DNA of 64,000 bases from the NCBI GenBank assembly GCA_964496095.1, contig CAZBWU010000004.1, forward strand, positions 21,366 to 85,365. Reading direction: 5' to 3'. This stretch comes from an uncultured Gammaproteobacteria bacterium. GTDB taxonomy: Bacteria; Patescibacteriota; Patescibacteriia; Magasanikbacterales; GWA2-37-8. Below the pieces are notes generated by a model, which did no database searches, was not told the origin of the DNA, and saw nothing but the letters and a program-made list of their open reading frames with translations. Of this stretch, positions 14,106 to 43,511 are shown piece after piece; the first letter of the stretch is position 1, and each line of letters starts with the position of its first letter. Position numbers and translations under genes: made by a program.

Positions 14106-14111
14106 TAGGTC

Positions 14112-15340: not shown

Positions 15341-15352
15341 ATATTATTCCTC

Positions 15353-15876: not shown

Positions 15877-15910
15877 GAACTTATAATCTTGGCCTTTAGG
15901 AAGCAAGGGG

Positions 15911-15939
15911 TTGACATTTTTGCCGTTTTAAACTATAGT
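15911..15939 (+). promoter_or_regulatory. Consensus sigma70 promoter upstream of rpsO
   Basis: TTGACA, 17-nt spacer, TATAGT. About 80 nt of GC-rich leader follows (CCCGTTACCCGGGGGCGGACGGCC), a possible S15 autoregulatory structure. Confidence 0.6.
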
Positions 15940-16023
15940 TATTACGTTATTTATAAATCCCGTTACCCGGGGGCGGACGGCCAAGAAACATACTCATGGC
16001 CAGCTCGTTAACTATAATTTCGT

Positions 16024-16389
16024 ATGTTAGAAAAAAAGAAAAAGTTAGCCATAATCAAAAAGTTCCAGGTCCATAAAGGAGACACAGGTTCCAATGAAGT
16101 GCAGATTGCAATCTTGGCAGCCGAAATCGACGAATTGGCTCAGCACTTAAAAACTCACCCAAAAGACCACTCTTCCCGCAGAGGCTTGCTCCGCAAGGTC
16201 AGTAGTCGCAGAAACTTAATGCGTTACCTTAAAAAAGAAAACCCAAAAAGTTACGAAGATCTCGTTAAAAAATTAAAAATCAAACAAGTCAGAACTATCA
16301 GTAAACTAGACGGAACTTCTGTTGAGGTAGAAGAAGACTTGGGAGAAGATGTAGATTTAATCGGAGATAGTCATGAGTCTGCAAGTTAG
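16024..16389 (+). CDS. rpsO: 30S ribosomal protein S15 (with C-terminal extension)
   Basis: HKGDTGSNEVQIAILAAEIDELAQHLKTHPKDHSSRRGLLRKVSSRRNLMRYL is the S15 signature. Confidence 0.85.
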   Translation: MLEKKKKLAIIKKFQVHKGDTGSNEVQIAILAAEIDELAQHLKTHPKDHSSRRGLLRKVSSRRNLMRYLKKENPKSYEDLVKKLKIKQVRTISKLDGTSVEVEEDLGEDVDLIGDSHESAS

Positions 16390-16978
16390 TAAAAAAAGAA
16401 ATACCCTTAAACACCCCGATCAAAGAGTAGGGGTGTTTATTGATGTTCAGAATATGTACTACAGCGCCAAAAACCTGTTTGGCGCCAAAGTAAATTTTGG
16501 CAATATTGTCAAAGAAGCTACTGCCGGGCGTAAACTCATTCGCGCCATTGCTTATGTGGTCAGCACCGAGAGTAAAGAAGAACAACCATTTTTTGATGCT
16601 CTGTATAATCTTGGTATAGAAACCAAAGATAAGCCTTTACAGATATTTTGGGGTGGTGAGAAGAAAGCTGACTGGGATGTGGGTTTGGCAGTTGACGCTA
16701 TCAGATTTTCTACAAATTTAGATGCGATAGTACTTGTTGGTGGGGATGGTGACTATGTGCCTTTGGTAGAATACTTGCGAGGTCATGGTAAGCAAGTAGA
16801 AGTAATTTCTTTTGGTGGTACCACTTCAGCCAAGTTGATTGATGCAGCGGACGATTTCATTGACCTTGGTCAAGACAAAGCCAAGTTCCTTATTACCGAC
16901 AAAAGATTTGTGCCAGTAAAAAAAGTTTATCCGCCAAAACAAAACGGAGTAAATCATAATTTAAAAGTTAAAATTTAA
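16373..16978 (+). CDS. NYN-domain (LabA/limkain-like PIN-fold) putative RNase; overlaps the rpsO stop
   Basis: VGVFIDVQNMYYSAKNLFGAKVNFGNIVKE...WDVGLAVDAIRFSTNLDAIVLVGGDGDYVPLVEYLRGHGKQVEV matches the NYN/LabA pattern. Confidence 0.7.
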   Translation: MSLQVSKKRNTLKHPDQRVGVFIDVQNMYYSAKNLFGAKVNFGNIVKEATAGRKLIRAIAYVVSTESKEEQPFFDALYNLGIETKDKPLQIFWGGEKKADWDVGLAVDAIRFSTNLDAIVLVGGDGDYVPLVEYLRGHGKQVEVISFGGTTSAKLIDAADDFIDLGQDKAKFLITDKRFVPVKKVYPPKQNGVNHNLKVKI

Positions 16979-22650: not shown

Positions 22651-22653
22651 AAT

Positions 22654-24024
22654 ATGACTTTACGTTCTATTAATCCAGCCACGCTGGGAGTAATATTAGA
22701 GACAGAAGAACTTTCCTCAGCAGAGCTTGAAGCAAAAATTTCTATTGCCGAGATCGCAGCTAGAGCTTGGAAAGAAACATCTTTTGCAGAGCGCAGTATC
22801 TTGATGAAGCGTGCGGCCTTAGAGTTGCGTACGCAAAGTGCGTCACTCGCCAAAATTATTACCGGCGAAGTGGGTAAAACCTTAGCTGCCTCAGCAGCTG
22901 AAATTGAAAAATGCGCGACGGTCTGTGATTATTATAGTGACAACGCTGAGAATTTTTTACAGCCTGAAATTGTGCTCACAGAAACAAGTAAAAATTATAT
23001 ACGATGTGAACCTCTTGGGATTGTGTTAGCTGTAATGCCATGGAACTTTCCTTTGTGGCAAGTATTTCGTTTTGCAGCACCAGCGTTGATGGCTGGGAAT
23101 ATAGGCATACTTAAACATGCTTCCAATGTGCAGGGGAGTGCTGCGGCTATTGAGCGGATATTTATTGAGGCTGGATTTCCAAGTGGTGTGTTTTCTAATT
23201 TGGCTTTAGGCTCTGCGCGTGTGGCTGGTATTATTCGAGATCCACGTATCAAAGCTGTAACCCTGACTGGTAGTGAGAAAGCTGGTAGTGATGTTGCTTC
23301 TATTGCCGGTAAAGAGATAAAAAAGGTGGTGCTTGAACTTGGTGGCAGTGACCCATTTATTGTCTTGTCTGATGCTGATTTAAATATGGCTGTAGCAACA
23401 GCTGTATCTGCACGGATGCAATCAAATGCTGGTCAGAGTTGTATCGCGGCCAAGAGATTTATTGTACATGAAAGTATCGCCGATGAATTTGTCAAACTTT
23501 TAGTGGAAGCAGTTAGTAAGCTCAAAGTTGGAGATCCGCTTGAGTCTACTACTAATGTAGGGCCACTTGCTAACGAACAGATGGTGAGAGATATTGAACA
23601 GCAAGTTGCATTATCAGTAGCCAAAGGCGCTCGTGTTTTGGTTGGTGGTTCGCACGCAGATATGAAAGGGTGTTTTTATCTGCCAACTGTATTAACTGAG
23701 GTCACCAAAGGAATGCCTGTCTATGACGAAGAAGTCTTTGGACCAGTATTGCCAGTTATTACTTTTAAAGATGTAGATGAGGCTGTCGCTATTGCCAATG
23801 ACAGCCCGTATGGTTTGGGCGCAACCATCTTCAGTCGTGATATTGCCCTGGCAACAAGTCTTGCAGAGAAAATAGAGTCTGGCAGTGTATTTATAAATAG
23901 TCAGGTGAAATCAGATCCACGACTTCCTTTTGGCGGTATCAAAAAATCAGGCTATGGTCGTGAGTTGTCGCACTATGGCATCAAAGAATTTGTGAGCATT
24001 AAGACAATTTCAGTGTCTGAATAA
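22654..24024 (+). CDS. NAD(P)-dependent aldehyde dehydrogenase family protein
   Basis: Catalytic motifs ELGGSDP and GQSCIAAKR; 456 aa. Confidence 0.85.
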   Translation: MTLRSINPATLGVILETEELSSAELEAKISIAEIAARAWKETSFAERSILMKRAALELRTQSASLAKIITGEVGKTLAASAAEIEKCATVCDYYSDNAENFLQPEIVLTETSKNYIRCEPLGIVLAVMPWNFPLWQVFRFAAPALMAGNIGILKHASNVQGSAAAIERIFIEAGFPSGVFSNLALGSARVAGIIRDPRIKAVTLTGSEKAGSDVASIAGKEIKKVVLELGGSDPFIVLSDADLNMAVATAVSARMQSNAGQSCIAAKRFIVHESIADEFVKLLVEAVSKLKVGDPLESTTNVGPLANEQMVRDIEQQVALSVAKGARVLVGGSHADMKGCFYLPTVLTEVTKGMPVYDEEVFGPVLPVITFKDVDEAVAIANDSPYGLGATIFSRDIALATSLAEKIESGSVFINSQVKSDPRLPFGGIKKSGYGRELSHYGIKEFVSIKTISVSE

Positions 24025-24594: not shown

Positions 24595-27850
<3,256 letters not shown>

Positions 27851-27944
27851 GTGCTTTGATTCTAGAAGTCTTCGTCTGATTTCTAGAAAGACCCTGTTAT
27901 TGTTGGATCAATGAATTGAATTTTTAAAATAAAAAGACCATTTT

Positions 27945-28053
27945 CTTGGTGACATGAGCGATTGGGTCACACCTGTTCCCATCCCGAACACAGAAGTTAA
28001 GCCAATCAGCGCCGATGATAGCCGCAAGGCAAAAGTAGGCCGTCGCCAGGACA
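27945..28053 (+). rRNA. rrf: 5S ribosomal RNA
   Basis: CCCATCCCGAACACAGAAGTTAAGC core with terminal helix CTTGGTGAC/GTCGCCAGG. Flanked by the inverted repeat AAAAAGACCATT...AATGGTCTTTTTTT, which serves as processing stem and terminator. Confidence 0.85.
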
Positions 28054-29039: not shown

Positions 29040-29520
29040 ACCAAAAGCTGGAGTGAAAAGTTTCCGAAGCCTTATACTCGCCGTCGGTACTTCCATCGGT
29101 TCAAACTCACTGTTGTCCTGAACTCAATCGGCCGTCTCTAACGGCCGATCTCACACAGCAGGACAACTTCCAGTCGCTCAAGCGACTGGCAACCGCTCGT
29201 TTTCACCGTGGCAAGTACACGCCGTTTTGTATAGGCTCGGATAGACAATCGTTGTTGTTGGTGCGAGACTTGAAATTAGGAGGTAGCAGACAGAGATGAG
29301 CCGGAGCGGTTCTTCAAAAGAATTCGCCCTGCTGTTTGAGTCCGCCCAAGGCGGATGAGTTCAGGGCGGAAGCGAGGGTGAGTCCTGTCTGGCTCCGAGT
29401 AGTTTCATTAGCTCGCGCTTCTTGCTTACTTCTTCTAAAGAAGTAAGGAAAAGTACTTTATCCACAGAAAAGCTGTCAGAAAAAAATTGACAGCTTTTTT
29501 TGTCTATGTTATGCTTATTT
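29040..29520 (+). ncRNA. Unidentified GC-rich, highly structured noncoding segment (candidate structured RNA); strand unknown
   Basis: No ORF in the track across about 480 nt. GC is clearly above the local background. Nested palindromes: GTTGTCCTG...CGGCCGTCTCTAACGGCCG...CAGGACAAC; CCAGTCGCTCAAGCGACTGG; GCCCTG...TCCGCCCAAGGCGGA...CAGGGC; CTTACTTCTTCTAAAGAAGTAAG. A terminal AGCTGTCAGAAAAAAATTGACAGCTTTTTTTG terminator precedes the downstream gene. Confidence 0.3.
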
Positions 29521-29530: not shown

Positions 29531-30265
29531 ATGCATACTAATTTCTTACAAAAACTTGGTTTTTCTGACAAGATGTCTACTGTGTATGTAGGCTTGCTTC
29601 GTTTGGGGCCATCTTCAGTACGAGAAGTGGCTGAAAATACAGGTATTAACCGTGGTACCGTCCATGAGCTCCTGAAAGAGTTGAGAGAAAAGGACTTGGT
29701 TGGTTTTTATGAAAAGGATTCTAAGCAGTATTTTGTTGCTGAAGATCCAGCTCGTCTCAATGTCTTGCTTGCCAAGCAGATGGAAGATTTACAAGAAGTA
29801 AAAAAAGATATAGATCAGCTCGTACCGGAATTGAAATCCTTGCACGACAAAGGCGGAGAGCGCCCGGTAGCTCGTTATTTTGAAAAAGAAAAAATCCATG
29901 AAATTTTAGAAGATGTTTTGGAAGTTTGTGAACGAACTGGAGAAATGGAATATCGGATTTATTCTACGGCTGGAATTCGTGAATATATTTATGATGGTTT
30001 TGAAACATTTAGCGACGCGCGTTTGGCTAAAGGCATTGCAGTTAAAGTAATTGCGATTGGTAAAGGTGGTGAGTTGCGCGGTTTGGATGAGCGTAAGTGG
30101 CTCGAAGCATCTTCAGACACACAAACATATATTATTATCTATCCTGGTAAAACTGCATATATTTCTTTGGATGCCAAAAATGAACCAGTGGGAGTAGTGA
30201 TAGAGAATTCCGGCGTCTATGAAACCCAAAAAAATATTTTTGATAGTTTGTGGATTAAAATTTAG
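29531..30265 (+). CDS. TrmB-family transcriptional regulator (HTH)
   Basis: N-terminal KLGFSDKMSTVYVGLLRLGPSSVREVAENTGINRGTVHELLKELREKDLV winged-helix as in TrmB. Confidence 0.55.
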   Translation: MHTNFLQKLGFSDKMSTVYVGLLRLGPSSVREVAENTGINRGTVHELLKELREKDLVGFYEKDSKQYFVAEDPARLNVLLAKQMEDLQEVKKDIDQLVPELKSLHDKGGERPVARYFEKEKIHEILEDVLEVCERTGEMEYRIYSTAGIREYIYDGFETFSDARLAKGIAVKVIAIGKGGELRGLDERKWLEASSDTQTYIIIYPGKTAYISLDAKNEPVGVVIENSGVYETQKNIFDSLWIKI

Positions 30266-30268
30266 CAT

Positions 30269-30907
30269 ATGTTTAATTATTCTTTTATAGATTGGGATAA
30301 TACTTTATATGACACTGTGGCTCTGCAAGCCGATATTTTTGGTATCTTTTCTAAGTTTGGAGCCACTGAAAATCATATTAAAGAAACTTTTCAGCGTTCG
30401 CTTTGTACAGTATCTCCTCATCAGTACGACTATACATTTGAGGAACATGCACAGTTTTTGCGGGAATTAGGTTATAATATTCCAAGTATTGTCGAAGACG
30501 AGCTTAACGCTTTGTTTTTAAAAGACTATCTTTTTTCAGATACGGTATTATTTTTAGACTTTTTAAAAAAAATTTCAAAAAACCTTATTTTACTTTCCGC
30601 TGGAGATGAAAAATTTCAGTTAAATAAGATTAAAAATAGTAAAATTTATAAAAATTTTAATGAAGTAGTTATTGTTAGCGGTGGAAAAGAAAATTATTTA
30701 TTAAATCGTTGCAAAAACGAAAAGATTTTTTTTGTTAATGATAATTTGCGAGAGAATGCATCTGTAAAAAATACATTGCCATCTGTTGTTTTAATTACAA
30801 AGCTTAATACGACGCGTTACTCAGAAGAAGATGCTAAACAAATCAAAGTTCCTTATTTTTCAACCTTAACTCAAATTAAACAATATGTTGAACAACAACT
30901 TGGATAA
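30269..30907 (+). CDS. HAD-superfamily hydrolase
   Basis: Motif I FIDWDNTLYD (DxDxT) near N-terminus. Confidence 0.55.
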   Translation: MFNYSFIDWDNTLYDTVALQADIFGIFSKFGATENHIKETFQRSLCTVSPHQYDYTFEEHAQFLRELGYNIPSIVEDELNALFLKDYLFSDTVLFLDFLKKISKNLILLSAGDEKFQLNKIKNSKIYKNFNEVVIVSGGKENYLLNRCKNEKIFFVNDNLRENASVKNTLPSVVLITKLNTTRYSEEDAKQIKVPYFSTLTQIKQYVEQQLG

Positions 30908-31643
30908 AGTAGGAGTAGTAGTGTTGGCCGCTGGTAAGGGCACTCGCCTCAATTGTGTAGACAAGCCAAAAGTAATGCTTGAAATTGGCGGTAGGCCCAT
31001 TATTAGTTATATTACAGAAACCTTAAAAGAAGTAGGTTTTCAAAATAGTCAGATAATGCTGGTTGTGGGTTTTTTTAGAGAAAAGGTAAAAGAATTTTTA
31101 CAAAACGAAGTGCTTTATGCAGATCAAAATGAGCAAAAGGGCACTGCTCACGCTGCCTTTACAGGGTCTCAGATGTTGTCTCCCGAAGCAGATAATATCT
31201 TGGTTATAAATGGAGATGATAGCGCTTTTTATAAAGAAGAAACTATTGTTAATTTTATTAATGAACATTTGTCCGCTCAAGCAACGGTGTCTGTTTTGTC
31301 GGCTGAGATTGAAGACCCGAGCGCACTTGGAAGAATTATCAGACATGATGATGGCAAAATTGAAATAATCGAAAAAGAATATTTAACAGATGAGCAAAAA
31401 ATGATAAAAGAAATTAGCACAGGCACTTTTTGCTTTGATCGTAAATGGTTTGAGGCTATGTTTCCGTCTATGCCACCCCTTCGTAAATTAGGGGAATATG
31501 GTTTGCCAACAGCCTTAACAGTAGCCGGTAATGAGAATAAAAAAATCCAAGTAGTAAAATTAAAAAATAGCAATGAGTGGTTTGGTATAAACACACCGGC
31601 AGAACTGGAAGAGGCAGACAAACGTAAGCGGGCGGTGTTATAA
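30885..31643 (+). CDS. Sugar-phosphate nucleotidyltransferase (GlmU N-terminal-domain-like; no acetyltransferase domain)
   Basis: VGVVVLAAGKGTRLNCVDKPKVMLEIGGRPII matches the NTP-transferase G-x-G-T-R motif; located directly upstream of glmS. Confidence 0.65.
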   Translation: MLNNNLDKVGVVVLAAGKGTRLNCVDKPKVMLEIGGRPIISYITETLKEVGFQNSQIMLVVGFFREKVKEFLQNEVLYADQNEQKGTAHAAFTGSQMLSPEADNILVINGDDSAFYKEETIVNFINEHLSAQATVSVLSAEIEDPSALGRIIRHDDGKIEIIEKEYLTDEQKMIKEISTGTFCFDRKWFEAMFPSMPPLRKLGEYGLPTALTVAGNENKKIQVVKLKNSNEWFGINTPAELEEADKRKRAVL

Positions 31644-31678: not shown

Positions 31679-33502
31679 ATGTGTGGAATTGTTGCCTACA
31701 TTGGAAATAAGCAAGCCCTGCCAATTTTGATAAATGGTCTGCGTCGTTTGGAATACCGCGGTTATGATAGTGCTGGTATTGCTGTTTTTGATGACGGTAA
31801 ACCTTGTACAATCAAAGCGGTTGGTAAGATTGATAATTTGGCCGAGAAACTAAAAACTCAAAATTTTGATAGCACATTTGGTATTGCTCATACGCGCTGG
31901 GCTACTCACGGTAGCGTGACTGAAAGCAACGCTCACCCGCACGCTGACTGCACCGGCAAAATTATTCTAGCTCATAATGGTATTATTGAAAATTATCGAG
32001 AGTTAAAAGAAAAGCTTGGTGCAAATCATGTATATAAATCAGAAACAGACTCTGAAGTTTTGGCGCACTTGATTGAAACATATTACACAGGTGATTTGCG
32101 CAAAGCGGTCTTGGAAGCATTAGCCCGTGTTCGAGGTACTTATGGACTCGTTGTGATGCATGCAGACCGCCCTGGACAGCTCGTAGTGGCTCGCATGGGG
32201 AGTCCGCTGGTAGTTGGCATTGGTGAAGAGGAATATTTTGTGGCTAGCGATGCGACACCGATGTTGGCTTATACCAAGAAAGTAATTTTTCTTGAAGATG
32301 GCGAGGTGGCCGATATTAGCCGAACCCAGCTACATACGGTAAATCTCAAAGATCATAATGTGACTAAACATGTAGAAGAGATTGAATGGGATGAAGCACA
32401 AGCTCAGAAACAAGGCTTTCCTCATTTTATGTTGAAAGAGATTTTTGATCAGCCAAATGTAGTCCAGGACGCTATTCGTGGACGGTATAAATTAGAAGAT
32501 GGTACCGCTCATCTAGGTGGGCTCAATATGAGTGATGAACAAATGCGTAGTATCAAAAGAATTATTCTTATTGCTTGTGGAACTGCTTCATATGCTGGTA
32601 TTGTGGGAAAATATATGTTTGAAAGGTTGGCCGGAATTCCAACCGAAGTTGATGTGGCTAGTGAATTTCGTTATCGTGATCCTATTATTGATAATCAAAC
32701 TTTGGTCTTTGGTATTTCTCAGTCTGGAGAAACGGCCGATACCCTTGCGGCTCTCAAAGAAGCCAAGAGAAAAGGTGCTTTTGTGCGCGGGATTGTCAAT
32801 GTGGTTGGTTCAACCATTGCCAGAGAAACTGATGGTGGTACTTATATTCATGCCGGACCAGAGTTGGCGGTTGCTTCTACTAAAGCCTACACAAACATGG
32901 TGGCAGTATTACTTTTGTATGCGTTGCAGTTTGGCCGGTTGAATAAACTTAGTATTGCCACCGGGCAAAGATTGTTGCAAGCTCTCGTAGAGATTCCAGA
33001 AAAAATGAAATCTATTTTGAGTCAGAGTGATAAAATAAAAGAGTTAGCTGAAAAGTATAAGAATTCTCGGGATATGTTGTATTTAGGTAGAGGGATAAAT
33101 TTTCCAGTTGCCTTGGAAGGCTCTCTCAAGTTAAAAGAAATTTCCTATATTCATAGCGAAGCTTATCCTGGAGGAGAAATGAAGCATGGTGCGATTGCGC
33201 TTCTTTCGCCAGAATTTCCCGTCATGGCGATTATGACCAAGAATCAATTATATGATAAGATGCGCAGTAATGTCGAAGAAATAAAAGCGCGAAAAGCGCC
33301 AATAATTCTAGTAGCTACCGAAGGGGATGATAAGGCAATTGAACTGGCGCAAGACGTGATTTATGTGCCACCGACGATGGAGCTGCTTGAACCTTTATTA
33401 AACACCCTTCCGCTTCAGCTTTTTGCCTACCATACAGCGGTGGCACTGGGTAGAGATGTAGACCGACCACGTAATTTAGCAAAGAGTGTTACGGTTGAAT
33501 AA
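31679..33502 (+). CDS. glmS: Glutamine--fructose-6-phosphate aminotransferase (isomerizing)
   Basis: N-terminal MCGIVAYIG (Ntn Cys), two SIS domains, 607 aa, C-terminal ...KSVTVE. Confidence 0.95.
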   Translation: MCGIVAYIGNKQALPILINGLRRLEYRGYDSAGIAVFDDGKPCTIKAVGKIDNLAEKLKTQNFDSTFGIAHTRWATHGSVTESNAHPHADCTGKIILAHNGIIENYRELKEKLGANHVYKSETDSEVLAHLIETYYTGDLRKAVLEALARVRGTYGLVVMHADRPGQLVVARMGSPLVVGIGEEEYFVASDATPMLAYTKKVIFLEDGEVADISRTQLHTVNLKDHNVTKHVEEIEWDEAQAQKQGFPHFMLKEIFDQPNVVQDAIRGRYKLEDGTAHLGGLNMSDEQMRSIKRIILIACGTASYAGIVGKYMFERLAGIPTEVDVASEFRYRDPIIDNQTLVFGISQSGETADTLAALKEAKRKGAFVRGIVNVVGSTIARETDGGTYIHAGPELAVASTKAYTNMVAVLLLYALQFGRLNKLSIATGQRLLQALVEIPEKMKSILSQSDKIKELAEKYKNSRDMLYLGRGINFPVALEGSLKLKEISYIHSEAYPGGEMKHGAIALLSPEFPVMAIMTKNQLYDKMRSNVEEIKARKAPIILVATEGDDKAIELAQDVIYVPPTMELLEPLLNTLPLQLFAYHTAVALGRDVDRPRNLAKSVTVE

Positions 33503-33519: not shown

Positions 33520-34677
33520 ATGAGGGCGTTAGTTTTTGATAAGAGCAAAACAGACTGGGAAAGTTCGCGCGGGTTTGATTTGGTAGATATTCCAAAGCCA
33601 GTTTTGGATAAAACAAATTCAGCCGAAGACAATCATGTTATTTTGAAAGTTCGTTATGCTGGGATTTGTGGTACCGACAGAGGTATTTGGAATAGGGTTG
33701 CTTTTCGAGATGCTATTTTAAACACGATTGATAAGCAGATAGAAAATGGTGGCAACTCGTATCGCATTATTGGTCATGAATTTTTTGGAGAAATAATGGA
33801 TGTTGGATCTAAGGTAGAAAATGTTAAGGTTGGAGATTTAGTTTCGTCAGAGTCACATCTTTTTTGTCAGAAATGTTATCAGTGTGCCCGCGGGCAACGA
33901 GAGGTTTGTACTAATGAAACAATTTTGGGCATTCATCATGATGGCGGTTTGGCGGAATTTATAAAATTACCAGATCATGTGTTACGCAAAACTGATACGA
34001 GTAAAATCCGTCCGGAAATTGCGGCTATGCAAGAGCCATTTGGTAACGCCGTGCATGCGGGTAGTAAAGTTGATGTAAAAGATAAAACTGTCGCTATTTT
34101 TGGTTTAGGGCCAATTGGTTTATTTTTGACTTTAGTCATGAAGGGTTTGGGAGCAAAAACAATTATTGGTGTCGAGCCAAATCTGACCGCTATTGAAATG
34201 GCCAAAAAATTAGGAATTGATCACGTAATACCTCTTGGCAAATCAGACAACGCGAAACCATACGCGCACGATATGGCTGTGGCCGAAGAAATCAAAAAAT
34301 TGACTGATGATGTTGGTGTAGATGTAAGTTTTGAAATGTCAGGATTTAATTCGTCTGCTAATAATTGTTTATACGCTACCCGCCGAGGCGGAGATATTAT
34401 CTTATTTGGAATTAAACAGGGAGATTTTGTTTTTGAAGATTACAACAGGATGATATTTAATGGATTCACACTTCATTTAGTGATTGGCCGGCAATTATGG
34501 CGCACATGGGATATTACAAAGCAGTTATTTGAAGACCAAACAAACGGTATTCAGGAAAAGTTATTTGATGTGATTTTAAATGGTGGTCAGGGCACTATTT
34601 TGCCAATCGCTGAATATTCCAAAGAAAAATTCGAAGAGATGATGACTAAGCACCCTAAACTTTTGATCAAGTTTTAA
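33520..34677 (+). CDS. tdh: L-threonine 3-dehydrogenase (Zn-dependent MDR family)
   Basis: GICGTD, GHEFFGEI, structural-zinc Cys cluster (CQKCYQCARGQREVC), QEPFGNAVH and GLGPIGL motifs; followed by kbl. Confidence 0.8.
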   Translation: MRALVFDKSKTDWESSRGFDLVDIPKPVLDKTNSAEDNHVILKVRYAGICGTDRGIWNRVAFRDAILNTIDKQIENGGNSYRIIGHEFFGEIMDVGSKVENVKVGDLVSSESHLFCQKCYQCARGQREVCTNETILGIHHDGGLAEFIKLPDHVLRKTDTSKIRPEIAAMQEPFGNAVHAGSKVDVKDKTVAIFGLGPIGLFLTLVMKGLGAKTIIGVEPNLTAIEMAKKLGIDHVIPLGKSDNAKPYAHDMAVAEEIKKLTDDVGVDVSFEMSGFNSSANNCLYATRRGGDIILFGIKQGDFVFEDYNRMIFNGFTLHLVIGRQLWRTWDITKQLFEDQTNGIQEKLFDVILNGGQGTILPIAEYSKEKFEEMMTKHPKLLIKF

Positions 34678-34686: not shown

Positions 34687-35889
34687 ATGTACACAAATTA
34701 CAAACAACAATTTGAACAAGAATTACAAGAAATAAAAGATGGAGGTATGTGGAAAGATGTGGGCGTGCTTGATGGCAAACAAGAACCAGAAATATCGGTT
34801 GGTGGTAAGACGTTGTTAAATTTTTGTGCTAATAACTATTTGGGACTAGCTTCGTCGGAAGAATTAGCTGAGGCGGCAATTGCTGGTGTCAAAAAATATG
34901 GCTTTGGCGAAGCTTCGGTGCGTTTTATAGTTGGCACCTCGTCTGTGCATAAAGATTTAGAAGCGGAAATCTGTAAGTTTTTTGGCATGGAAGATGCTAT
35001 TAGCTACACTTCTTGTTTTGATGCTAATACCGGATTATTTGAAACTATTCTTAAAGAAGGTGATGCGATTTTTTCAGATGAACTCAATCATGCTAGTATT
35101 ATCGATGGCGTTCGGTTGTGTAAGGCCGAAAGATATCGTTATAAAAATAGCGATATGGAAGATTTGGAGAATCAACTCAAAGCTTGTTTAGCCGTATCTA
35201 AACCTCGTCGGATACTTATTGCCACTGACGGCGTATTCTCTATGGATGGTATAACTGCTAAGTTAAAAGAAATTTGTGACTTGGCAGACAAGTATTGCGC
35301 TATGGTAATGGTAGATGATAGTCATGCCAGTGGCGTGCTTGGCAAAACCGGTCGGGGGAGTATTGAACAAGCGGGAGTGATGGGTAGAGTAGATATTTTG
35401 ACTTCTACTTTTGGTAAAGCCTTGGGTGGAGCAGGGGGAGGATTTACTGCTGGACGCAAAGAAATTATACAAGTTTTACACCAAAGAAGCCGTACGAGTT
35501 TGTTTAGTAATTCTTTGCCACCGATGATTGTCAGCGCCGCTTTGTATGTGTTGCAAAATTATGACAATAAGTTTATAAAAAGCAGAGAAAGGTTAGAAGA
35601 AAATACAAATTACTTTAGAAGTAAAATGGAAGCGCTTGGGTTTAGTCTTGGTGGTGACGGTAAACACCCAATAACACCAGTTATGCTTATGGAGGAAACA
35701 CTCGCCAGAGATATGGCTTCAGCTTTATTTAAGAAAGGTATCTATGTTCGCGGGTTTACTTATCCGGTTGTGCCTAAAGGCAAAGCACGCATTAGAGTTC
35801 AGATCTCCGCAGCCCACACTAAGGAACAGATGGATCAGGCCCTGTCTGCTTTTGCTGAGGTAGGTAAGGCTATGAATATTATCAAATAA
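34687..35889 (+). CDS. kbl: 2-amino-3-ketobutyrate CoA ligase (glycine C-acetyltransferase)
   Basis: AONS-family PLP enzyme with N-terminus typical of Kbl (...LLNFCANNYLGL...), FSMDG and TFGKALGG (PLP Lys). Confidence 0.85.
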   Translation: MYTNYKQQFEQELQEIKDGGMWKDVGVLDGKQEPEISVGGKTLLNFCANNYLGLASSEELAEAAIAGVKKYGFGEASVRFIVGTSSVHKDLEAEICKFFGMEDAISYTSCFDANTGLFETILKEGDAIFSDELNHASIIDGVRLCKAERYRYKNSDMEDLENQLKACLAVSKPRRILIATDGVFSMDGITAKLKEICDLADKYCAMVMVDDSHASGVLGKTGRGSIEQAGVMGRVDILTSTFGKALGGAGGGFTAGRKEIIQVLHQRSRTSLFSNSLPPMIVSAALYVLQNYDNKFIKSRERLEENTNYFRSKMEALGFSLGGDGKHPITPVMLMEETLARDMASALFKKGIYVRGFTYPVVPKGKARIRVQISAAHTKEQMDQALSAFAEVGKAMNIIK

Positions 35890-35897: not shown

Positions 35898-36842
35898 ATG
35901 AAAAATGTAGTCGTAATTGGCGGAGGTAATGGTTCGGCAATTTGTTTGGAAGCGTTGAAAAAATATGCAGATGATTTGGGTATCTCAGCGATAGTTTCTA
36001 TGAGTGATTCCGGGGGTTCTTCTGGTAAGCTTCGCAAAGAATTAAATACTTTACCACCAGGGGATGTGTTGCGGGCGATTTTGTCTCTTTCTATCTATGA
36101 TTATCAATCTCTTAAAAAGATTTTTTATAAGCCAAGATTTAAAAATACCGGTAGATTAAATAGTCATAACTTAGGTAATTTATTTTTAACTTTATCTGGT
36201 CAATTTTCCGGTAATTTTATTTATGCTTTGGACGCCTTATCCCAGAGTGTAGAAGCGCAAGGAAAAGTTTTTCCAGTCACCTTGGAAAATACCGATTTAG
36301 TAGCTGAGTTAGATAATGGTAAAATTATAAGAACAGAAGAGTTTATAGATACTCCGAGGTATAATAGGGGTTGGAAGATAAAACGAGTTTGGTTAGAGCC
36401 AAATTGTCGAGCTTATCCTCAAGCTGTACAGGCAATAACAAAAGCAGATACAATAGTAATTGGCTCTGGTAGTCTATATACAAGTTTGGTAGCGACCTTA
36501 TTACCTGTTGGAATAAAAGAAGCGATAAAAAAATCCAAAGCTAAAATAATATTTTTGGCTGGTAGTGCTTATAGGCTCAATGGTGAGACTGGGCCAGAAA
36601 AACTAAGTGAAATGGTGGCGCAATTAGAGAAGTATCTGCCTAGAAAGGTTGATATGGTTATTCATAATAGTCATAAACTTAATGCTAAACAAAAAAAGAT
36701 TTATCAAGAAAATAGTTGGGGAGTTTTTTCTTTTGATAAAGAAAATTTGAAAAATAGAAAGGTTGTAAGTGTAGGTTTTGAAAGAAATGAAGGCGGGCTG
36801 GATCCAAAAAAACTAAGTCCTATTTTAAAAAAGTATATTTAA
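35898..36842 (+). CDS. YvcK/UPF0052 (CofD-like) gluconeogenesis-factor family protein
   Basis: VVVIGGGNGSA and SMSDSGGSSGKLR motifs. Confidence 0.75.
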   Translation: MKNVVVIGGGNGSAICLEALKKYADDLGISAIVSMSDSGGSSGKLRKELNTLPPGDVLRAILSLSIYDYQSLKKIFYKPRFKNTGRLNSHNLGNLFLTLSGQFSGNFIYALDALSQSVEAQGKVFPVTLENTDLVAELDNGKIIRTEEFIDTPRYNRGWKIKRVWLEPNCRAYPQAVQAITKADTIVIGSGSLYTSLVATLLPVGIKEAIKKSKAKIIFLAGSAYRLNGETGPEKLSEMVAQLEKYLPRKVDMVIHNSHKLNAKQKKIYQENSWGVFSFDKENLKNRKVVSVGFERNEGGLDPKKLSPILKKYI

Positions 36843-36844: not shown

Positions 36845-37180
36845 ATGGAATTACAGAAAGAAATTTTAAAAGATAGCTATGCGGTTAAGATAACCGCTCG
36901 AGAAAATAGCCAAGAAGTTGGTAGGGTTCGATTGTATATTATTTATAATGATGTGCATAAAGAACCAGTTGGTTTATTAGAGGATGTGTTTGTTGATGAA
37001 TCACAGAGAGGAAGTGGTCTAGGTACAAAGTTAGTAGAGTCAGCTATAGATGAAGCCAAGAAAATTGGTTGTTATAAGGTAATTTGCACCAGTCGTTTTG
37101 GCAGAGAAAAACTCCATGCATGGTACGAGAAATTAGGATTTAAAAAACATGGAGTAGAATTTAGAATGGATTTTATATAG
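36845..37180 (+). CDS. GNAT-family N-acetyltransferase
   Basis: Acetyl-CoA-binding motif VDESQRGSGLGTKLVESAIDEAKK. Confidence 0.6.
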   Translation: MELQKEILKDSYAVKITARENSQEVGRVRLYIIYNDVHKEPVGLLEDVFVDESQRGSGLGTKLVESAIDEAKKIGCYKVICTSRFGREKLHAWYEKLGFKKHGVEFRMDFI

Positions 37181-37181: not shown

Positions 37182-38330
37182 ATGAATTTATACGAATTTG
37201 AAGGGAAAAATTTATTTGCCAAGCATGGTGTAGCTACTCCGAAAGGGGTGGTAGTTTGGCGCGGGGATGATATCAAAAGTAAATACCACGAACTAGGAGT
37301 TTCTAGCGTCGTGGTGAAAGCTCAGATTTTGGCAGGCAAACGTGGTAAGAATAATGGTATCAAGTTTTGCGCTAGCTCTGAAGAAGTGGAAACTGCTGTT
37401 ACAGAACTTTTTAGTGGTAATATCAAAGGCCAATATGTAGAAGCGGTTTTGATTGAAGAAAAATTGGATATTGCCGAAGAGCATTATATTTCTATTACTT
37501 ACGATACTATTACTAAACAGCCAATTTTAATTTACAGTTCGCAAGGTGGAATGGATATAGAAGATGTAGCTGAAGATAAAATAACTAAAAAGTTGTTAGA
37601 TATAAGAAGCGAAGTTATTGTTTCAGGCTTGCCATGCGCAGAAAAATTATGGCAATGTTTTTTGCAAGAAGACGCACGTGTGGTAGAAATAAATCCACTT
37701 GTTAAAACAAAAGATGGGGAGTGGTTTGCGGCTGATGCCAAAATTGCTTTGGATGACGATGCTTTTTATCGCCATGAAGAATGGAATAGTTTGGCGCCAC
37801 GCACCATGATGGGGCGCCTGCCTACCGAAAGAGAATTATCCGCCAAAAAAATAGATGAGGGCGAAGCCTATTATCGTGGTACGGCTGGCAAGTATATTGA
37901 AATGGATGGAGATATTGCAGTTATTTTAAATGGTGGTGGTGCTAGTATCGCCAATATGGACGCACTTATAGGTGTTGGTCTCAAGCCGGCAAATTATACT
38001 GAGTATTCTGGTAATCCTCCGCGTGAAAAAGTTTATGCTTTGGCCAAAGTGGTTTTGTCCAAACCTGGTATTCGTGGGCTCTGGATGGCAGGAGTAGTCG
38101 CCAACTTTACCAACATTAAAGAAACATTTTTAGGTATTATTGATGCTTTGGATGAAATTAAACCCACCTATCCAATCGTAGTTCGTCGTGACGGTACAGA
38201 GAGCGCTGAAGCTTTTAGGCTTTTGGCAGAATGCGCCGAGCGTAATCATTTAAATATTAAAATGTTTAAAAAAGAAATCGGTATGAGCGCCACCGCTCAG
38301 ATTTTGGCTGATATGGTTAGTAAAAATTAA
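37182..38330 (+). CDS. ATP-grasp beta subunit of a succinyl-CoA-synthetase-like ligase (SucC/CcsA/AclB family)
   Basis: MNLYEFEGKNLFAKHGVATPKG...VVVKAQILAGKRGK matches the SucC N-terminus. Confidence 0.75.
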   Translation: MNLYEFEGKNLFAKHGVATPKGVVVWRGDDIKSKYHELGVSSVVVKAQILAGKRGKNNGIKFCASSEEVETAVTELFSGNIKGQYVEAVLIEEKLDIAEEHYISITYDTITKQPILIYSSQGGMDIEDVAEDKITKKLLDIRSEVIVSGLPCAEKLWQCFLQEDARVVEINPLVKTKDGEWFAADAKIALDDDAFYRHEEWNSLAPRTMMGRLPTERELSAKKIDEGEAYYRGTAGKYIEMDGDIAVILNGGGASIANMDALIGVGLKPANYTEYSGNPPREKVYALAKVVLSKPGIRGLWMAGVVANFTNIKETFLGIIDALDEIKPTYPIVVRRDGTESAEAFRLLAECAERNHLNIKMFKKEIGMSATAQILADMVSKN

Positions 38331-38334
38331 TCAT

Positions 38335-38589
38335 ATGTCATGGCAGGATATCGTTCTTACCCTCACTAGCGTCGCTTTTTGTGTGTCGCTGATGCCACAG
38401 GCTATCCAGGGGTTTAGAGAGAAGAGAGGGCCGATTACATTGCAAACTTCAATCCCGACATTTATCGGTTTGTATATTACGTCTGCAGTTTATTTTTCCC
38501 TATCATTTTATTTTGCGACGGTAACGTGTTTTATTACCGGTACAATATGGCTTATTTTATTTATTCAGCGAGTGATCTATAAAAAGTAG
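38335..38589 (+). CDS. 3-TM PQ-loop (semiSWEET-like) small membrane protein
   Basis: 84 aa with three predicted TM helices and a PQ motif in TM1 (VSLMPQAIQGF), as in bacterial semiSWEET sugar transporters. Confidence 0.4.
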   Translation: MSWQDIVLTLTSVAFCVSLMPQAIQGFREKRGPITLQTSIPTFIGLYITSAVYFSLSFYFATVTCFITGTIWLILFIQRVIYKK

Positions 38590-38591
38590 AT

Positions 38592-39479
38592 ATGAGCATT
38601 TTAATATCCCAAAATACAAAAGTATTGGTGCAAGGCATTACCGGTAAAGAAGGTGCTAAAGGCGCTAAGGCTATGTTAGATTATGGCACCAATGTCCTTT
38701 GTGGTGTCACGCCAAAAAAAGGTGGACAAGAGGTAGAAGGCAAACCAGTTTTTAATTCTATTGCTGAAGCTTTTGCTCAGTTCCCAGAGATAAATACATC
38801 GGTTGTATATGTGCCTCCTTTTGCTGCGAAGGCCGCCATTCTTGAGGCAATTGAAAGTGGTATAAGTCTAATCAATGTTTTTGTAGAACGAATACCAATT
38901 AAGGATACAGCCTATTGTCTGGCAGTGGCCAAAGAAAAAAATATTCAAATCTTGGGACCTAGTTCTCTGGGTTTAGTTGTTCCTGGTATTGGTCGCTTGG
39001 GAGTGATGGGTGGTCCACTGGTAAATGAAATTTTTAAACCGGGTTCAATTGGCGTTATCTCTCGTTCTGGTGGAATGAGTAACGAACTATCATGGCAACT
39101 CTCTCAAAACGGTTTAGGTCAAAGCGCTACCGTGCATGTTGGGGGAGATTTACTAATGGGTACCACTTATGCGGACTTGTTAAAATTATTTGAAAAAGAT
39201 GAGCAGACAAAAGGGGTGGTAATTTTTGGAGAACATGGCGGTGGCTTTGAGTTTGAGATAGTTGATTTAATCAATAATAAAGAATATACTAAACCATTGG
39301 CTATCTATATCGGCGGTAAGTTTGCCAATGTTTTCCCCGAAGGCGCTAATATTGGCCATGCTGGGGCTATTGTGGGCCGTGGTCAGAGCGCAGAGGAAAA
39401 AGAAGTAGCCCTGTTAGCCGTGGGAGTCCAAATCGCAGATAAGTACGAAGACTTGGCAATACTAGCTAAATCATTTTAA
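38592..39479 (+). CDS. CoA-binding alpha subunit of a succinyl-CoA-synthetase-like ligase (SucD/CcsB/AclA-N family)
   Basis: NTKVLVQGITGKEGAKGAKAMLDYGTNVLCGVTPKKGG and the phospho-His region SRSGGMSNE...G.GH. Confidence 0.8.
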   Translation: MSILISQNTKVLVQGITGKEGAKGAKAMLDYGTNVLCGVTPKKGGQEVEGKPVFNSIAEAFAQFPEINTSVVYVPPFAAKAAILEAIESGISLINVFVERIPIKDTAYCLAVAKEKNIQILGPSSLGLVVPGIGRLGVMGGPLVNEIFKPGSIGVISRSGGMSNELSWQLSQNGLGQSATVHVGGDLLMGTTYADLLKLFEKDEQTKGVVIFGEHGGGFEFEIVDLINNKEYTKPLAIYIGGKFANVFPEGANIGHAGAIVGRGQSAEEKEVALLAVGVQIADKYEDLAILAKSF

Positions 39480-39489
39480 ATTACAGACT

Positions 39490-40218
39490 ATGCAATGGAA
39501 AACAGCTATTACAAATGTAAACAACGGGCAAGAAATAATCCGTGGTCAAAGTCATGATAAATTAGCGCTTGAAAAAAGCTTTACCGATGTAATTTTTTTG
39601 ATTTTAAAAGAAGTTTTACCGACCGAAAAAGAAGCAAGAATGATGAATACGATACTTGTGGAAATGATAGATCATGGTCCGGGTACTCCTTCGGCTCTTG
39701 CTGCTCGTATTGTTGCTTCCACAAGCACAAGTCTTTACAGCTCAGTCGCAGCTGGATTAATAGGTCTTGGTGGTATTCGACATGGTGGGGCGTTGGGAAG
39801 CGCAGCCAAGTTTTTTGTTGAAAATATTAATATAAACGACTTACCAGGATTACTCGCTGAACTGAAATCCAAAAAAATCTATGTCCCTGGATTTGGTCAT
39901 AAAGTTTTAAAAGTAGATAACCGTGCAGAAACATTATTAAAAGTGGCAAAAGAAAATGGTTTTTTTGGTAAGTATAGCGAGTTTGCTGTTAAAGTTAAAG
40001 AAGAAATAAATAAAACTTCTTCAAAACCATTGCCATTAAATATGGATGGCGCTAATGCGGCCATTTTATTGGATATGGGTTTTAGTCAGAAATTGATCGA
40101 CGGATTTTTTATTATCGCCCGTACGCCTGGGCTCGTAGCTCATGCGGTAGAGGAAGTCGAGTCGGGTGAAGGTTTGCGACGACTTGATGAAAAAGATATT
40201 GAATATATTGGTAAATAA
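39490..40218 (+). CDS. Short citrate-synthase-fold protein (citryl-CoA-lyase-like; resembles AclA C-terminal domain)
   Basis: 242 aa. Citrate-synthase catalytic motifs retained: GGIRHGGA (His), PGFGHKV (His), NMDGANAAILLDMGF (Asp region). Confidence 0.55.
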   Translation: MQWKTAITNVNNGQEIIRGQSHDKLALEKSFTDVIFLILKEVLPTEKEARMMNTILVEMIDHGPGTPSALAARIVASTSTSLYSSVAAGLIGLGGIRHGGALGSAAKFFVENININDLPGLLAELKSKKIYVPGFGHKVLKVDNRAETLLKVAKENGFFGKYSEFAVKVKEEINKTSSKPLPLNMDGANAAILLDMGFSQKLIDGFFIIARTPGLVAHAVEEVESGEGLRRLDEKDIEYIGK

Positions 40219-40219
40219 T

Positions 40220-41101
40220 ATGACTGATTATAATATTTTAACTATTCCGTCAGAAAAAGACTACGAATTATTAGACAGTGGTGATGGAGAAAAATTAGAA
40301 CGCTATGGCGATGTGGTGGTGGCTAGACCAGATCCGCAAACTTTGTGGAAAAAAAATCTAAGCGAAGAAGATTGGCAGAAAGCCGACGCTTATTTTTATC
40401 GCGACAGCACCGATGCCAATTGGAATGTGCGTCGTGAATTACCAGAACGTTGGCCGATAGAAATCGCTGGTTTGAAGTTTTGGATTAAGCTCTCTGCTTT
40501 CAAGCATACAGGTGTCTTTCCAGAACAGGCTAGTAATTGGAATTGGATTCGAGAAAAAATCAAGAAAGCAAAGAGAGCTGAGAGTCCAAAAGTCTTAAAT
40601 CTTTTTGGTTATACCGGTGGTGCAACTTTGGCGGCTGCTCAAGCTGGAGCCGAGGTAGTCCATATTGATGGCTCCAAATCAGCTATTGGTTGGGCTCGTG
40701 ATAATGCTGAATTATCTGGTTTGTCAGAGAAGCCAGTTCGCTGGATTTTGGATGATGCGCAAAAATTTGTGACTCGAGAGATAAAACGTGGTAAAAAATA
40801 TGACGGCATTATTATGGATCCGCCAGCTTTTGGTCATGGTCCGGGCGGAGAAATGTGGAAAATAGAAGAAGACTTTTTGGGGCTTTTAGATTCTTGTAAA
40901 GAAATACTGAGCGACAAACCTCTATTTTTTATTGTTAATGGTTATGCTTCTGGTTATTCGGCGATTGCCTATAAAAATAGCTTGGGTGATTTGCTGAAAG
41001 ATTTTGGTGGTGAGATTGAAATTGGAGAATTGACTATGGGAGAATCGTCCAGCGACCGAGTTTTGCCAGCTGGTATTTTTGCGCGCTGGAGCTCTATTTA
41101 A
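40220..41101 (+). CDS. Class I SAM-dependent methyltransferase (RlmI/RlmK-like rRNA methyltransferase). The start is likely the ATG at about 40220 (MTDYNIL).
   Basis: VLNLFGYTGGATLAAAQAGA (motif I), IIMDPPAFG (motif IV DPP), PUA-less. Confidence 0.7.
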   Translation: MTDYNILTIPSEKDYELLDSGDGEKLERYGDVVVARPDPQTLWKKNLSEEDWQKADAYFYRDSTDANWNVRRELPERWPIEIAGLKFWIKLSAFKHTGVFPEQASNWNWIREKIKKAKRAESPKVLNLFGYTGGATLAAAQAGAEVVHIDGSKSAIGWARDNAELSGLSEKPVRWILDDAQKFVTREIKRGKKYDGIIMDPPAFGHGPGGEMWKIEEDFLGLLDSCKEILSDKPLFFIVNGYASGYSAIAYKNSLGDLLKDFGGEIEIGELTMGESSSDRVLPAGIFARWSSI

Positions 41102-43229: not shown

Positions 43230-43511
43230 ATTGTGCACCTCCTCTCATTTTTATAATTTATATAAGTTTTTTCTACTCGCGAGGAAAGAAAAAACTTATT
43301 GAAGAAACTTTTACAAGACAAGCATTGCTGTAAAAATTTATCTCGACTTATTTATTATAGAATGTTTTTTATAAATTGTGAATAGTAAAAGTGAAAGTTA
43401 TACACAGGGTAGGTAAAATTTTATTTTTTTAAAAATAAAATAAAAAATATTTTATTAAAAAATTATAAATAAAAAATTCCGATGAAGTCGGAATTTTAAA
43501 TTTATCTTATG

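Follow-up and report, generated by a model that had tools for sequence, protein, structure and literature searches.

Why would a member of the candidate phyla radiation (CPR, or Patescibacteria) with no tricarboxylic acid (TCA) cycle in view carry the genes of a citrate-cleaving system, and what would such a cell do with the products? The question is raised by a run of genes at positions 37182-40218 of the DNA analysed here, a stretch of 64,000 nucleotides (64 kb) from contig CAZBWU010000004.1 of a genome placed in the Magasanikbacterales, which is called the window below. Three of the proteins encoded in this run resemble the two subunits of citryl-CoA synthetase (CCS, made of CcsA and CcsB) as well as the citryl-CoA lyase (CCL, or Ccl) of Hydrogenobacter. 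Judged from sequence, they are very probably CCS/CCL-family enzymes that act on citrate and citryl-CoA. As to their role, the balance tips, although not strongly, towards a module that would perform the two-enzyme, ATP-dependent citrate cleavage of the Hydrogenobacter type and supply acetyl-CoA mainly for the N-acetylation of hexosamines. The run consists of the following genes.

37182-38330, + strand: ccsA-like gene (citryl-CoA synthetase large, beta-type subunit, 382 amino acids), with an ATP-grasp domain and a citrate-binding domain of the ATP-citrate lyase (ACL) type
38335-38589, + strand: open reading frame (ORF) of 84 amino acids with three transmembrane segments, weakly SemiSWEET/PQ-loop-like (Pfam PQ-loop, E 0.0057, below cut-off)
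38592-39479, + strand: ccsB-like gene (citryl-CoA synthetase small, alpha-type subunit, 295 amino acids), with a CoA-binding domain and the phosphohistidine loop IGHAGA
39490-40218, + strand: ccl (citryl-CoA lyase, 242 amino acids, truncated citrate-synthase fold; NCBIfam NF004869)

An earlier, sequence-only reading of this DNA had described the locus as a three-gene run encoding proteins of 382, 295 and 242 amino acids. The list of ORFs and their translations contains intact plus-strand frames of exactly these sizes, and the motifs GGIRHGGA, PGFGHKV and NMDGANA that had been quoted for the shortest protein are all found in its translation. The domain description is matched by Pfam, which reports ATP-grasp_2 in the large subunit, CoA_binding together with Ligase_CoA/Succ_CoA_lig in the small subunit, and the C-terminal part of Citrate_synt in the lyase. 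The order and strand of the three genes also hold, but they are not contiguous, since the 84-residue membrane ORF between both ligase genes had been overlooked. Spacers within the run measure 1-10 nucleotides (nt), and a gene for a GNAT acetyltransferase ends 1 nt before ccsA. The G+C content of the replicon is approximately 39%. A related contig, L087 (the loci compared in this work are cited by such L numbers), is colinear with this region of the window over its 13 kb, and its GNAT is identical.

The large subunit is the most informative with respect to the substrate. It matches PF08442 with 150 bits and PF16114 (Citrate_bind) with 87.7 bits (cut-off 26.8), and there is no match to PF00549 (Ligase_CoA) in Pfam; this architecture is identical in 120 out of 120 closest homologues. 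The NCBIfam equivalog models for SucC (256.6 bits, cut-off 370) and malate-CoA ligase (179 bits, cut-off 604) are both missed. Among proteins of known structure, CcsA of Hydrogenobacter thermophilus (6hxq_B, 2.5e-62) ranks above Thermus SucC (4.7e-50) and Chlorobium AclB (4e-38).

At the level of residues, the window CcsA and 12 relatives have GGGAS, ANYTEYSGNP, a two-residue deletion followed by ANFTN, and VRR, as well as an insertion of about 13 residues (IDEGEAYYRGTAG). These motifs and the insertion are common to AclB and/or H. thermophilus CcsA and are absent from four SucC references, which have NGAGL, ANFLDxGGG, IFGGIxRCD and VRL at the same sites and lack the insertion. When the alignment was used as a test for citrate-pocket residues, EYSG, ANFTN and VRR were found to be kept in the window protein and the 12 relatives, matching Chlorobium AclB. 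ANFTN and VRR align with N346-F347-T348-N349 and R378-R379 of human ACLY, with consistent numbering. The equivalents of ACLY Y307-S308-G309, N346/T348 and R379 are residues that we take to line the citrate site, as in the structures of ACLY with citrate. For the assignment of CcsA, this residue-level alignment is more telling than overall identity.

The small subunit gives a less uniform picture. It contains CoA_binding (82.6 bits) in addition to the Ligase_CoA and Succ_CoA_lig domains, and falls short of the SucD equivalog (276.1 bits, cut-off 336). The phosphohistidine loop IGHAGA and the motif GEHGG are conserved. Its best match in the PDB is an archaeal SucD (2yv2, 2.7e-74, 45.8% identity), followed by H. 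thermophilus CcsB (3.2e-58, 39.9%). Neither the rank of this match nor its percent identity was accepted as decisive for SucD, because of the tree and of the indels and motifs that the protein shares with CcsB. The window protein and CcsB have in common an insertion of 4-6 residues (GGPLVN), SGGM in place of SGTL, and a three-residue insertion before IGHAGA, all of which are missing in five SucD references.

The third protein is the most readily assigned. It passes the NCBIfam citryl-CoA lyase model NF004869 (238 bits, cut-off 212), and all citrate-synthase models score far under their cut-offs. The description of this protein as lacking the large domain of citrate synthase was imprecise: Pfam and the PDB alignments indicate that approximately 160 N-terminal residues are missing and that the remainder is kept, with the match covering positions 162-352 of the 357 in the Citrate_synt profile, that is, the C-terminal two thirds. 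It aligns over its full length with H. thermophilus CCL (6hxp_A, 2.5e-52), followed by the CCL modules of ACL (about 5e-27) and citrate synthases (7e-20 or weaker). The AlphaFold2 (AF2) model, with a pLDDT of 90.9, has 6hxp as its best fold match (TM-scores 0.91/0.86, 45% identity), then all the ACL CCL modules, and citrate synthases only afterwards. Residues H98, H137, D186, R145, F207 and R211 are invariant in alignments of 15 and 28 sequences, and R230 is invariant in the 15-sequence set. From the conserved spacing, the first six presumably correspond to H274, H320, D375, R329, F397 and R401 of pig citrate synthase. H98 is also present in Hydrogenobacter Ccl, and Chlorobium AclA has Phe at that site.

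The placement of the ligase subunits was examined with neighbour-joining (NJ) trees (200 bootstraps), with E. coli K-12 and the PDB alignments as the sources of references. In these distance-based trees with few references, four SucC and five SucD sequences were each split at 100% from the CPR proteins, H. thermophilus Ccs and Chlorobium AclB, the small-subunit tree having been built without any AclA sequence. When 1.84 billion cluster representatives were searched exhaustively and the 150 best matches classed by motif, ranks 1-80 were citrate-type sequences or unclassifiable fragments and none was succinate-type; the first succinate-type protein appeared at rank 81 (186 bits). The sequence-only reading had proposed CcsAB plus Ccl, and had named a position of the ligase subunits inside ordinary succinyl-CoA synthetases, together with one of the short protein among degenerate or regulatory citrate-synthase fragments, as the result that would speak against it. 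All three proteins side with CCS, CCL and ACL rather than with SucCD and citrate synthase, and the proposal survives because both the trees and the library ranking place the proteins outside SucCD.

Two alternatives concern the identity of the enzymes. That the locus encodes an ordinary SucCD next to a degenerate, inactive citrate-synthase fragment can be regarded as effectively excluded. The best-scoring NCBIfam models for the ligase subunits are indeed those of SucC and SucD, and an archaeal SucD heads the PDB matches of the small subunit, but both equivalog cut-offs are missed, Citrate_bind replaces Ligase_CoA in the large subunit, the SucC signatures NGAGL, FGGI.RCD and VRL are replaced, and the tree splits have full bootstrap support. 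Moreover, the lyase retains all catalytic residues, and the protein itself is conserved across hundreds of species. The other alternative keeps the CCS/CCL family and changes the acid or thioester substrate, for example, to methylcitrate, citramalate or malate derivatives. It draws on the fact that the characterised enzymes are those of H. thermophilus only, that NF004869 is of the type 'subfamily' and not an equivalog, and that larger genomes can encode a Ccl homologue with no synthetase gene beside it; one more distant homologue, in a 3.7-Mb genome, stands alone and offers no functional clue. However, the citrate-pocket residues of ACLY (YSG, N-F-T-N, R-R) are conserved, as is the oxaloacetate/citrate-binding set of citrate synthase, including the H137-R145 and F207-R211 spacings, and the score with the malate-CoA ligase model is less than a third of its cut-off. 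A different substrate is considered very improbable. Some points do weigh against the assignment to the CCS/CCL family: the large subunit is barely closer to H. thermophilus CcsA than to Thermus SucC (39.8% and 38.5% identity), the small subunit is closer by identity to archaeal SucD than to CcsB, and the assignment rests on the C-terminal domain, on motifs and indels, and on small NJ trees with few references.

If the three proteins are CCS and CCL, the expected course of the reaction can be outlined. ATP would be bound in the ATP-grasp domain and the histidine of the small subunit (IGHAGA) would be phosphorylated, after which the phosphoryl group would be passed to citrate that the large subunit binds in its ACL-type citrate-binding domain. 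Attack by CoA would then yield citryl-CoA, ADP and phosphate, and the His/His/Asp set of Ccl would split citryl-CoA into acetyl-CoA and oxaloacetate. We infer this catalytic chemistry of CcsAB and Ccl from homology and from the residues that are conserved, and it probably proceeds in the citrate-cleaving, anabolic direction.

The setting of the genes bears on what this reaction would be for. The DNA inspected comprised 64 kb of this genome and ±10 kb around the hits in relatives. As the earlier reading had remarked, no further TCA or reductive TCA (rTCA) enzyme is encoded by the ORFs of the 64-kb window that were scanned or read, and Pfam gene tables show no 2-oxoglutarate:ferredoxin oxidoreductase, fumarate reductase, aconitase or isocitrate dehydrogenase in the window or in the ±10 kb flanks of five related contigs. 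Metagenome-assembled genomes (MAGs) of groundwater Patescibacteria are mostly without a TCA cycle, and a marker for converting pyruvate into acetyl-CoA was present in only 14% of them (PMC8672522). Because TCA enzymes are not in view, and because Patescibacteria generally lack the cycle and usually also the route from pyruvate to acetyl-CoA, the most likely role would not be in a reductive TCA cycle; instead, the module would produce acetyl-CoA (and oxaloacetate) from scavenged citrate in the manner of ACLY.

Which reaction would use this acetyl-CoA? A candidate answer is provided by the genes directly upstream, which form an amino-sugar cluster.

29466-29515, + strand: terminator-like hairpin, then the best plus-strand promoter-like site of the region (consensus scan)
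29531-30265, + strand: TrmB-type sugar-sensing regulator (Pfam TrmB)
30269-30907, + strand: HAD-like protein of 212 amino acids (weak Hydrolase match, E 0.0023)
30885-31643, + strand: N-terminal half of GlmU (sugar-1-phosphate uridylyltransferase, no acetyltransferase domain; GlmU model positions ~2-236 of 447)
31679-33502, + strand: GlmS, glutamine--fructose-6-phosphate aminotransferase (from the translation; GATase and SIS domains on the identical L087 gene)
33520-34677, + strand: Tdh-like Zn-dependent dehydrogenase, probable L-threonine 3-dehydrogenase (best NCBIfam equivalog 239 bits, below the cut-off of 380)
34687-35889, + strand: Kbl, glycine C-acetyltransferase (2-amino-3-ketobutyrate CoA ligase; NF005394, 585 bits, cut-off 460)
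35898-36842, + strand: YvcK/CofD-related protein that binds UDP-N-acetylglucosamine (UDP-GlcNAc; TIGR01826, 230 bits, cut-off 196)
36845-37180, + strand: mini-GNAT acetyltransferase of 111 amino acids (Pfam Acetyltransf_1), 1 nt upstream of ccsA

The next strong hairpin lies at 43473-43497. It is possible that the region between 29.5 and 43 kb is a co-directional transcription unit starting near 29466-29515, although the promoter/terminator scan gave counts near the shuffled expectation and is a weak hint of operon limits only.

The arrangement was followed through related loci, using those with more than 9 kb of upstream sequence for synteny (n = 50), those with an upstream flank of more than 4 kb for the integrity of the module (n = 61), and 62 loci for the genes in the slot before ccsA. 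In 61 of 61 loci, ccl is preceded on its own strand by ccsA and ccsB. GlmS is present in 46 of 50, YvcK in 45-47, the mini-GNAT in 43 and the GlmU homologue in 32. The modal order, TrmB>HAD>GlmU-N>GlmS>YvcK>GNAT>CcsA>CcsB>Ccl, is complete in 16 of the 50 loci and partial in most others; the window follows it, with the Tdh-like and Kbl genes inserted after GlmS. In 22 out of 22 related loci, the GlmU homologue is an ORF of 223-271 amino acids without the acetyltransferase half. Since this protein represents the uridylyltransferase half only, the acetyltransferase function must come from another protein. A variant of the split is seen in the Uhrbacteria locus L046, where an archaeal-type GlmU is encoded in two pieces, one gene for each half, at 7123-7791 (+) and 15561-16397 (-).

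Tdh and Kbl would together convert threonine to glycine and acetyl-CoA, which would be a second route to acetyl-CoA within the cluster. The two genes are adjacent here and in relatives, but in other loci the pair takes different positions, before GlmS or after ccl. Kbl clusters with the module in several loci, and in three with a rearranged order (L044, L046 and L051) it lies downstream of ccl.

The slot immediately before ccsA is filled in three different ways. The mini-GNAT occupies it in 50 of 62 loci. A stand-alone C-terminal acetyltransferase domain of GlmU, a left-handed beta-helix (LbH) protein matching positions ~215-387 of TIGR03992, is found in L033, L044 and L046; in L033 it takes the exact position usual for the GNAT, while the two Uhrbacteria loci L044 and L046 have the order GlmS-LbH-CcsA-CcsB-Ccl-Tdh-Kbl-YvcK. 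Thirdly, in the divergent locus L083 (CcsA 42-44% identical), the gene 7 bp before ccsA encodes a full-length archaeal-type GlmU. The two kinds of acetyltransferase do not co-occur: 50 loci have the GNAT only, four have LbH, none has both, and eight have neither. One of the last group has a different GNAT of 161 amino acids in the slot; a UDP-sugar dehydrogenase and a GtrA-like protein are found in two others.

The best sequence and fold matches of the window mini-GNAT include glucosamine-6-phosphate N-acetyltransferases (GNA1) of human, worm, fungal, plant, yeast and trypanosome origin, and its sequence and profile matches in the PDB are enriched in such enzymes. The AF2 model (pLDDT 95.6) has an acetyltransferase of T. 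brucei (3fb3) as its top fold match, with 37-40% identity. It is proposed that the mini-GNAT is a hexosamine-phosphate N-acetyltransferase and a consumer of the acetyl-CoA made by the module. The possibility that it regulates the CoA ligase by acetylation, in the manner of Pat/AcuA, was also considered and is less likely, given that a GlmU-type LbH protein or full GlmU replaces the mini-GNAT in the slot. As a separate observation, L083 (DATBWR010000004.1) was deposited as 'Candidatus Nanoarchaeia archaeon' and encodes at 817-1248 an MraZ-like protein, recognised from its N-terminal sequence. MraZ being a protein of the bacterial division cluster, this bin, instead of being archaeal, may belong to the bacteria (CPR).

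Taken together, the module would mainly serve the step in which glucosamine phosphate is N-acetylated during the synthesis of UDP-GlcNAc for the cell wall, and threonine dehydrogenase with Kbl would be the second acetyl-CoA source of the cluster. Hexosamine N-acetylation is favoured as the main customer because a conserved amino-sugar cluster ends with the module, and this use of acetyl-CoA is suggested because non-homologous acetyltransferase replacements recur and because Tdh/Kbl co-migrates. Whether the link to hexosamine acetylation is as specific as this is close to an even call, leaning slightly to the negative. It is tempting to go further and to speculate that the ABY1 class possesses a 'hexosamine operon' with a built-in acetyl-CoA generator. 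Here GlmS would form glucosamine 6-phosphate, the mini-GNAT, LbH protein or full GlmU would acetylate it with acetyl-CoA from host-derived citrate or from threonine, and the GlmU half would complete UDP-GlcNAc. This full scheme is more tentative still, and we regard it as the less probable outcome.

Several points weigh against the coupling of citrate cleavage to amino-sugar synthesis. Genes for an rRNA methyltransferase, RluA and a TIGR00375/MJ0043 protein are equally conserved nearby, and lie between the GNAT and ccsA in at least 13 loci; inheritance of gene order could account for much of the synteny. Compared with canonical GNATs, the mini-GNAT is short of ~50 N-terminal residues (helices), its matches are not exclusive to GNA1, and its public annotation is just 'GNAT family'. 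No citrate transporter was identified in the window, nor is there a malic enzyme in the window that could serve as an outlet for oxaloacetate. Other sources of acetyl-CoA, or a full GlmU, are possible beyond the 64 kb and ±10 kb flanks inspected, and the substrate and direction assumed for the CPR members rest on homology.

An alternative is that the same citrate cleavage takes place with no amino-sugar coupling, as a general supply of acetyl-CoA and oxaloacetate or as citrate fermentation, with oxaloacetate going to pyruvate via malic enzyme and the gene order simply being inherited. In addition to the unrelated genes conserved nearby, often between the GNAT and ccsA, this explanation can account for the eight of 62 loci without GNAT or LbH upstream and for the unrelated cargo frequently inserted inside the module. 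A gene for malic enzyme, a candidate oxaloacetate outlet, adjoins 2-3 genes downstream of ccl in four loci (L007, at 12291-13418, L027, L031 and L045). However, inertia alone hardly explains three acetyltransferase solutions beside ccsA, including one in a lineage with only 42-44% CcsA identity and others in rearranged loci, nor the co-migration of Tdh/Kbl, another source of acetyl-CoA. An uncoupled module is regarded as unlikely, although it is the alternative to be taken most seriously. The module might also run in reverse, with acetyl-CoA (for example, from threonine via Tdh/Kbl) and oxaloacetate joined to citryl-CoA and released as citrate with a gain of ATP, so that it would act as an ATP-yielding citrate synthase. 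Reactions of the succinyl-CoA synthetase (SCS)/ACL superfamily are reversible, CPR bacteria rely on substrate-level phosphorylation, and Tdh and Kbl would produce acetyl-CoA in the same cluster; ATP-yielding citrate synthesis was reportedly proposed by Moller et al. in 1987 for the ATP-citrate lyase of Desulfobacter postgatei. On the other hand, neither aconitase nor another citrate-consuming enzyme is in view in the window, oxaloacetate would be required in stoichiometric amounts, simpler ADP-forming acetyl-CoA synthetases yield equal ATP, and the neighbouring acetyltransferases consume acetyl-CoA. A module working in this direction appears improbable, and citrate cleavage that feeds hexosamine acetylation remains the preferred reading.

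The module is not a peculiarity of this genome. A Ccl homologue occurs in 397 GTDB species representatives (matching two peptide patterns), and the relatives are mostly ABY1-class Patescibacteria; the best 80 of the 397 species are nearly all Magasanikbacteria, Uhrbacteria and Kerfeldbacteria. The guess that the DNA came from a CPR-like genome was correct, since the closest homologues are from Candidatus Magasanikbacteria and other Patescibacteria, and the 23S-5S gene pair described below, which has an intron and no neighbouring 16S gene, is in keeping with this. Public databases already name the proteins 'citryl-CoA lyase' and 'ATP citrate lyase citrate-binding domain-containing protein' (NCBI) or 'citryl-CoA synthetase large subunit' (JGI); an exact-sequence look-up of the window Ccl gave no match. 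A 2022 preprint noted that CPR and DPANN have CCS/CCL homologues, for which SCS or citrate synthase (CS) is a frequent mis-annotation, and another paper described an enrichment of aclAB in Saccharimonadia. No functional study of CPR CCS/CCL was found in the literature on CPR together with citryl-CoA, citrate lyase or GlmU. The gene family is thus already known and annotated in this lineage, and the cluster context is the added result. The earlier judgement that such a module would be metabolically remarkable has to be tempered accordingly: it is a lineage-wide trait of ABY1 Patescibacteria that had been annotated and noted in a preprint. Among the GTDB matches, several CPR records are titled 'uncultured Gammaproteobacteria bacterium', and one 'Candidatus Udaeobacter'.

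The interior of the module is variable. The intergenic slots between ccsA and ccsB and between ccsB and ccl are insertion hot spots, and approximately one third of the related loci have 0.2-2.7 kb of cargo there, such as a LemA and TPM-like pair, membrane proteins, a GIY-YIG-like ORF, Nudix hydrolases, methyltransferases and a toxin-antitoxin-like pair. The 84-residue ORF of the window is found at the same position in only one of 80 related loci (L011, 51% identity). Its slot holds a 202-amino acid methyltransferase in L006, a relative that is 96% identical. The ORF has no sequence match in the PDB, and is absent from the public gene calls on the identical contig L087. The idea that it is a core part of the module, for example as a SemiSWEET-like transporter, was rejected, as it is shared with L011 only, lacks a PDB match and the slots hold unrelated genes elsewhere. 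On the other side of the module, the longest ORF of an rRNA-methyltransferase-like gene (40166-41101) starts at GTG and overlaps ccl by 53 nt; the public start on the identical contig is equivalent to position 40220, with no overlap.

Other parts of the window contain features of separate interest. Genes for 23S and 5S rRNA are located at 24606-28051 without an adjacent 16S gene; the 23S gene is 3228 nt long, compared with 2925 nt for the model, and contains a group I intron (26704-26906). The region 21019-24024, immediately before the rRNA genes, encodes a thiamine pyrophosphate (TPP) enzyme (equivalog PRK08322 for the acetolactate synthase large subunit, 777 bits, cut-off 509) with an aldehyde dehydrogenase that resembles succinate-semialdehyde dehydrogenase and scores below cut-off; the pair may be a further small carbon-handling module. 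At 86-2121, a 467-amino acid ORF matches the ribonucleotide reductase barrel at its C-terminal end only, has a TSCPD domain and is followed by a PduO-type cobalamin adenosyltransferase, which may represent a split or partial class II ribonucleotide reductase. Genes at 3041-7318 encode proteins with pilin-like N-terminal methylation motifs or hydrophobic leaders (for example, 3490-5289, with N_methyl and CarboxypepD_reg). Finally, a series of ORFs of 117-272 amino acids at 9737-15876 have signal-peptide-like N-termini and no family assigned.

CPR bacteria are abundant and almost uncultured, and they have neither a TCA cycle nor most of the routes to acetyl-CoA, yet they build peptidoglycan; hence, they need acetyl-CoA for UDP-GlcNAc. 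If the proposed link is true, citrate, or alternatively threonine, would be a metabolite that these cells must get from their hosts or the environment, and the synthesis of the cell wall of an episymbiont would depend on it. This would provide a handle for cultivation and for the study of host dependence. It would also constitute a bacterial counterpart of the eukaryotic link between ACLY and hexosamines, with a eukaryote-like GNAT route of acetylation. Should the amino-sugar link prove wrong, the locus would be no more than a new genome's copy of an ordinary gene family that is annotated already. When metagenomes are surveyed, CCS/CCL genes by themselves are a poor marker of carbon fixation through the rTCA cycle, and an unfused, ACL-like CCS/CCL lineage has been added that bears on the origin of ATP-citrate lyase.

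Among known systems, the closest is that of H. thermophilus (CcsA/CcsB, 6hxq, and Ccl, 6hxp). It has the same architecture of three polypeptides, with the large subunit, small subunit and lyase separate; it gives the best PDB match for the large subunit and the lyase of the window, and has insertions in common with both ligase subunits. Identity to the window proteins is approximately 40% for both ligase subunits and 45% for the lyase. The citrate-pocket motifs of the CPR large subunit (GGGAS, ANYxEYSG, ANFT) are nevertheless nearer to AclB than to Hydrogenobacter CcsA, and CcsB of H. thermophilus is a protein of 353 amino acids with a C-terminal extension, whereas the window small subunit of 295 amino acids has none. 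Unlike in Hydrogenobacter, no rTCA cycle is in view in the host of the window, and the genes lie in an amino-sugar cluster where they are often interrupted by cargo.

The ATP-citrate lyases (AclB/AclA of Chlorobium limicola, 6hxj, and ACLY) have the same predicted overall reaction, the citrate-binding domain and the pocket motifs in common with the window proteins, and the model of the window lyase superposes on their CCL modules with a TM-score of about 0.9. In contrast to the window, where the genes are separate and other genes stand between them in many relatives, the homologue of the small subunit is fused to the lyase in AclA, and ACL has Phe where the window lyase has His98. Cytosolic ACLY supplies acetyl-CoA outside a cycle, which provides an analogy for the proposed role of the window module.

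SucC and SucD belong to the same superfamily and share the ATP-grasp and CoA-binding/phosphohistidine architecture, the GHAGA loop, GE.GG and EINPL, with identities of 30-46%; the window proteins differ from them in having Citrate_bind in place of Ligase_CoA, changed substrate-pocket motifs and three indels, and they score under the equivalog cut-offs. Citrate synthase (GltA and relatives) has the fold and the catalytic His/His/Asp and Arg residues in common with the window lyase, which lacks its N-terminal ~160 residues. As regards the acetyltransferase slot, eukaryotic GNA1 and the window mini-GNAT share the GNAT core, although the latter has only 111 amino acids, and the acetyltransferase domain of GlmU fills in sister lineages the place that is held here by the mini-GNAT.

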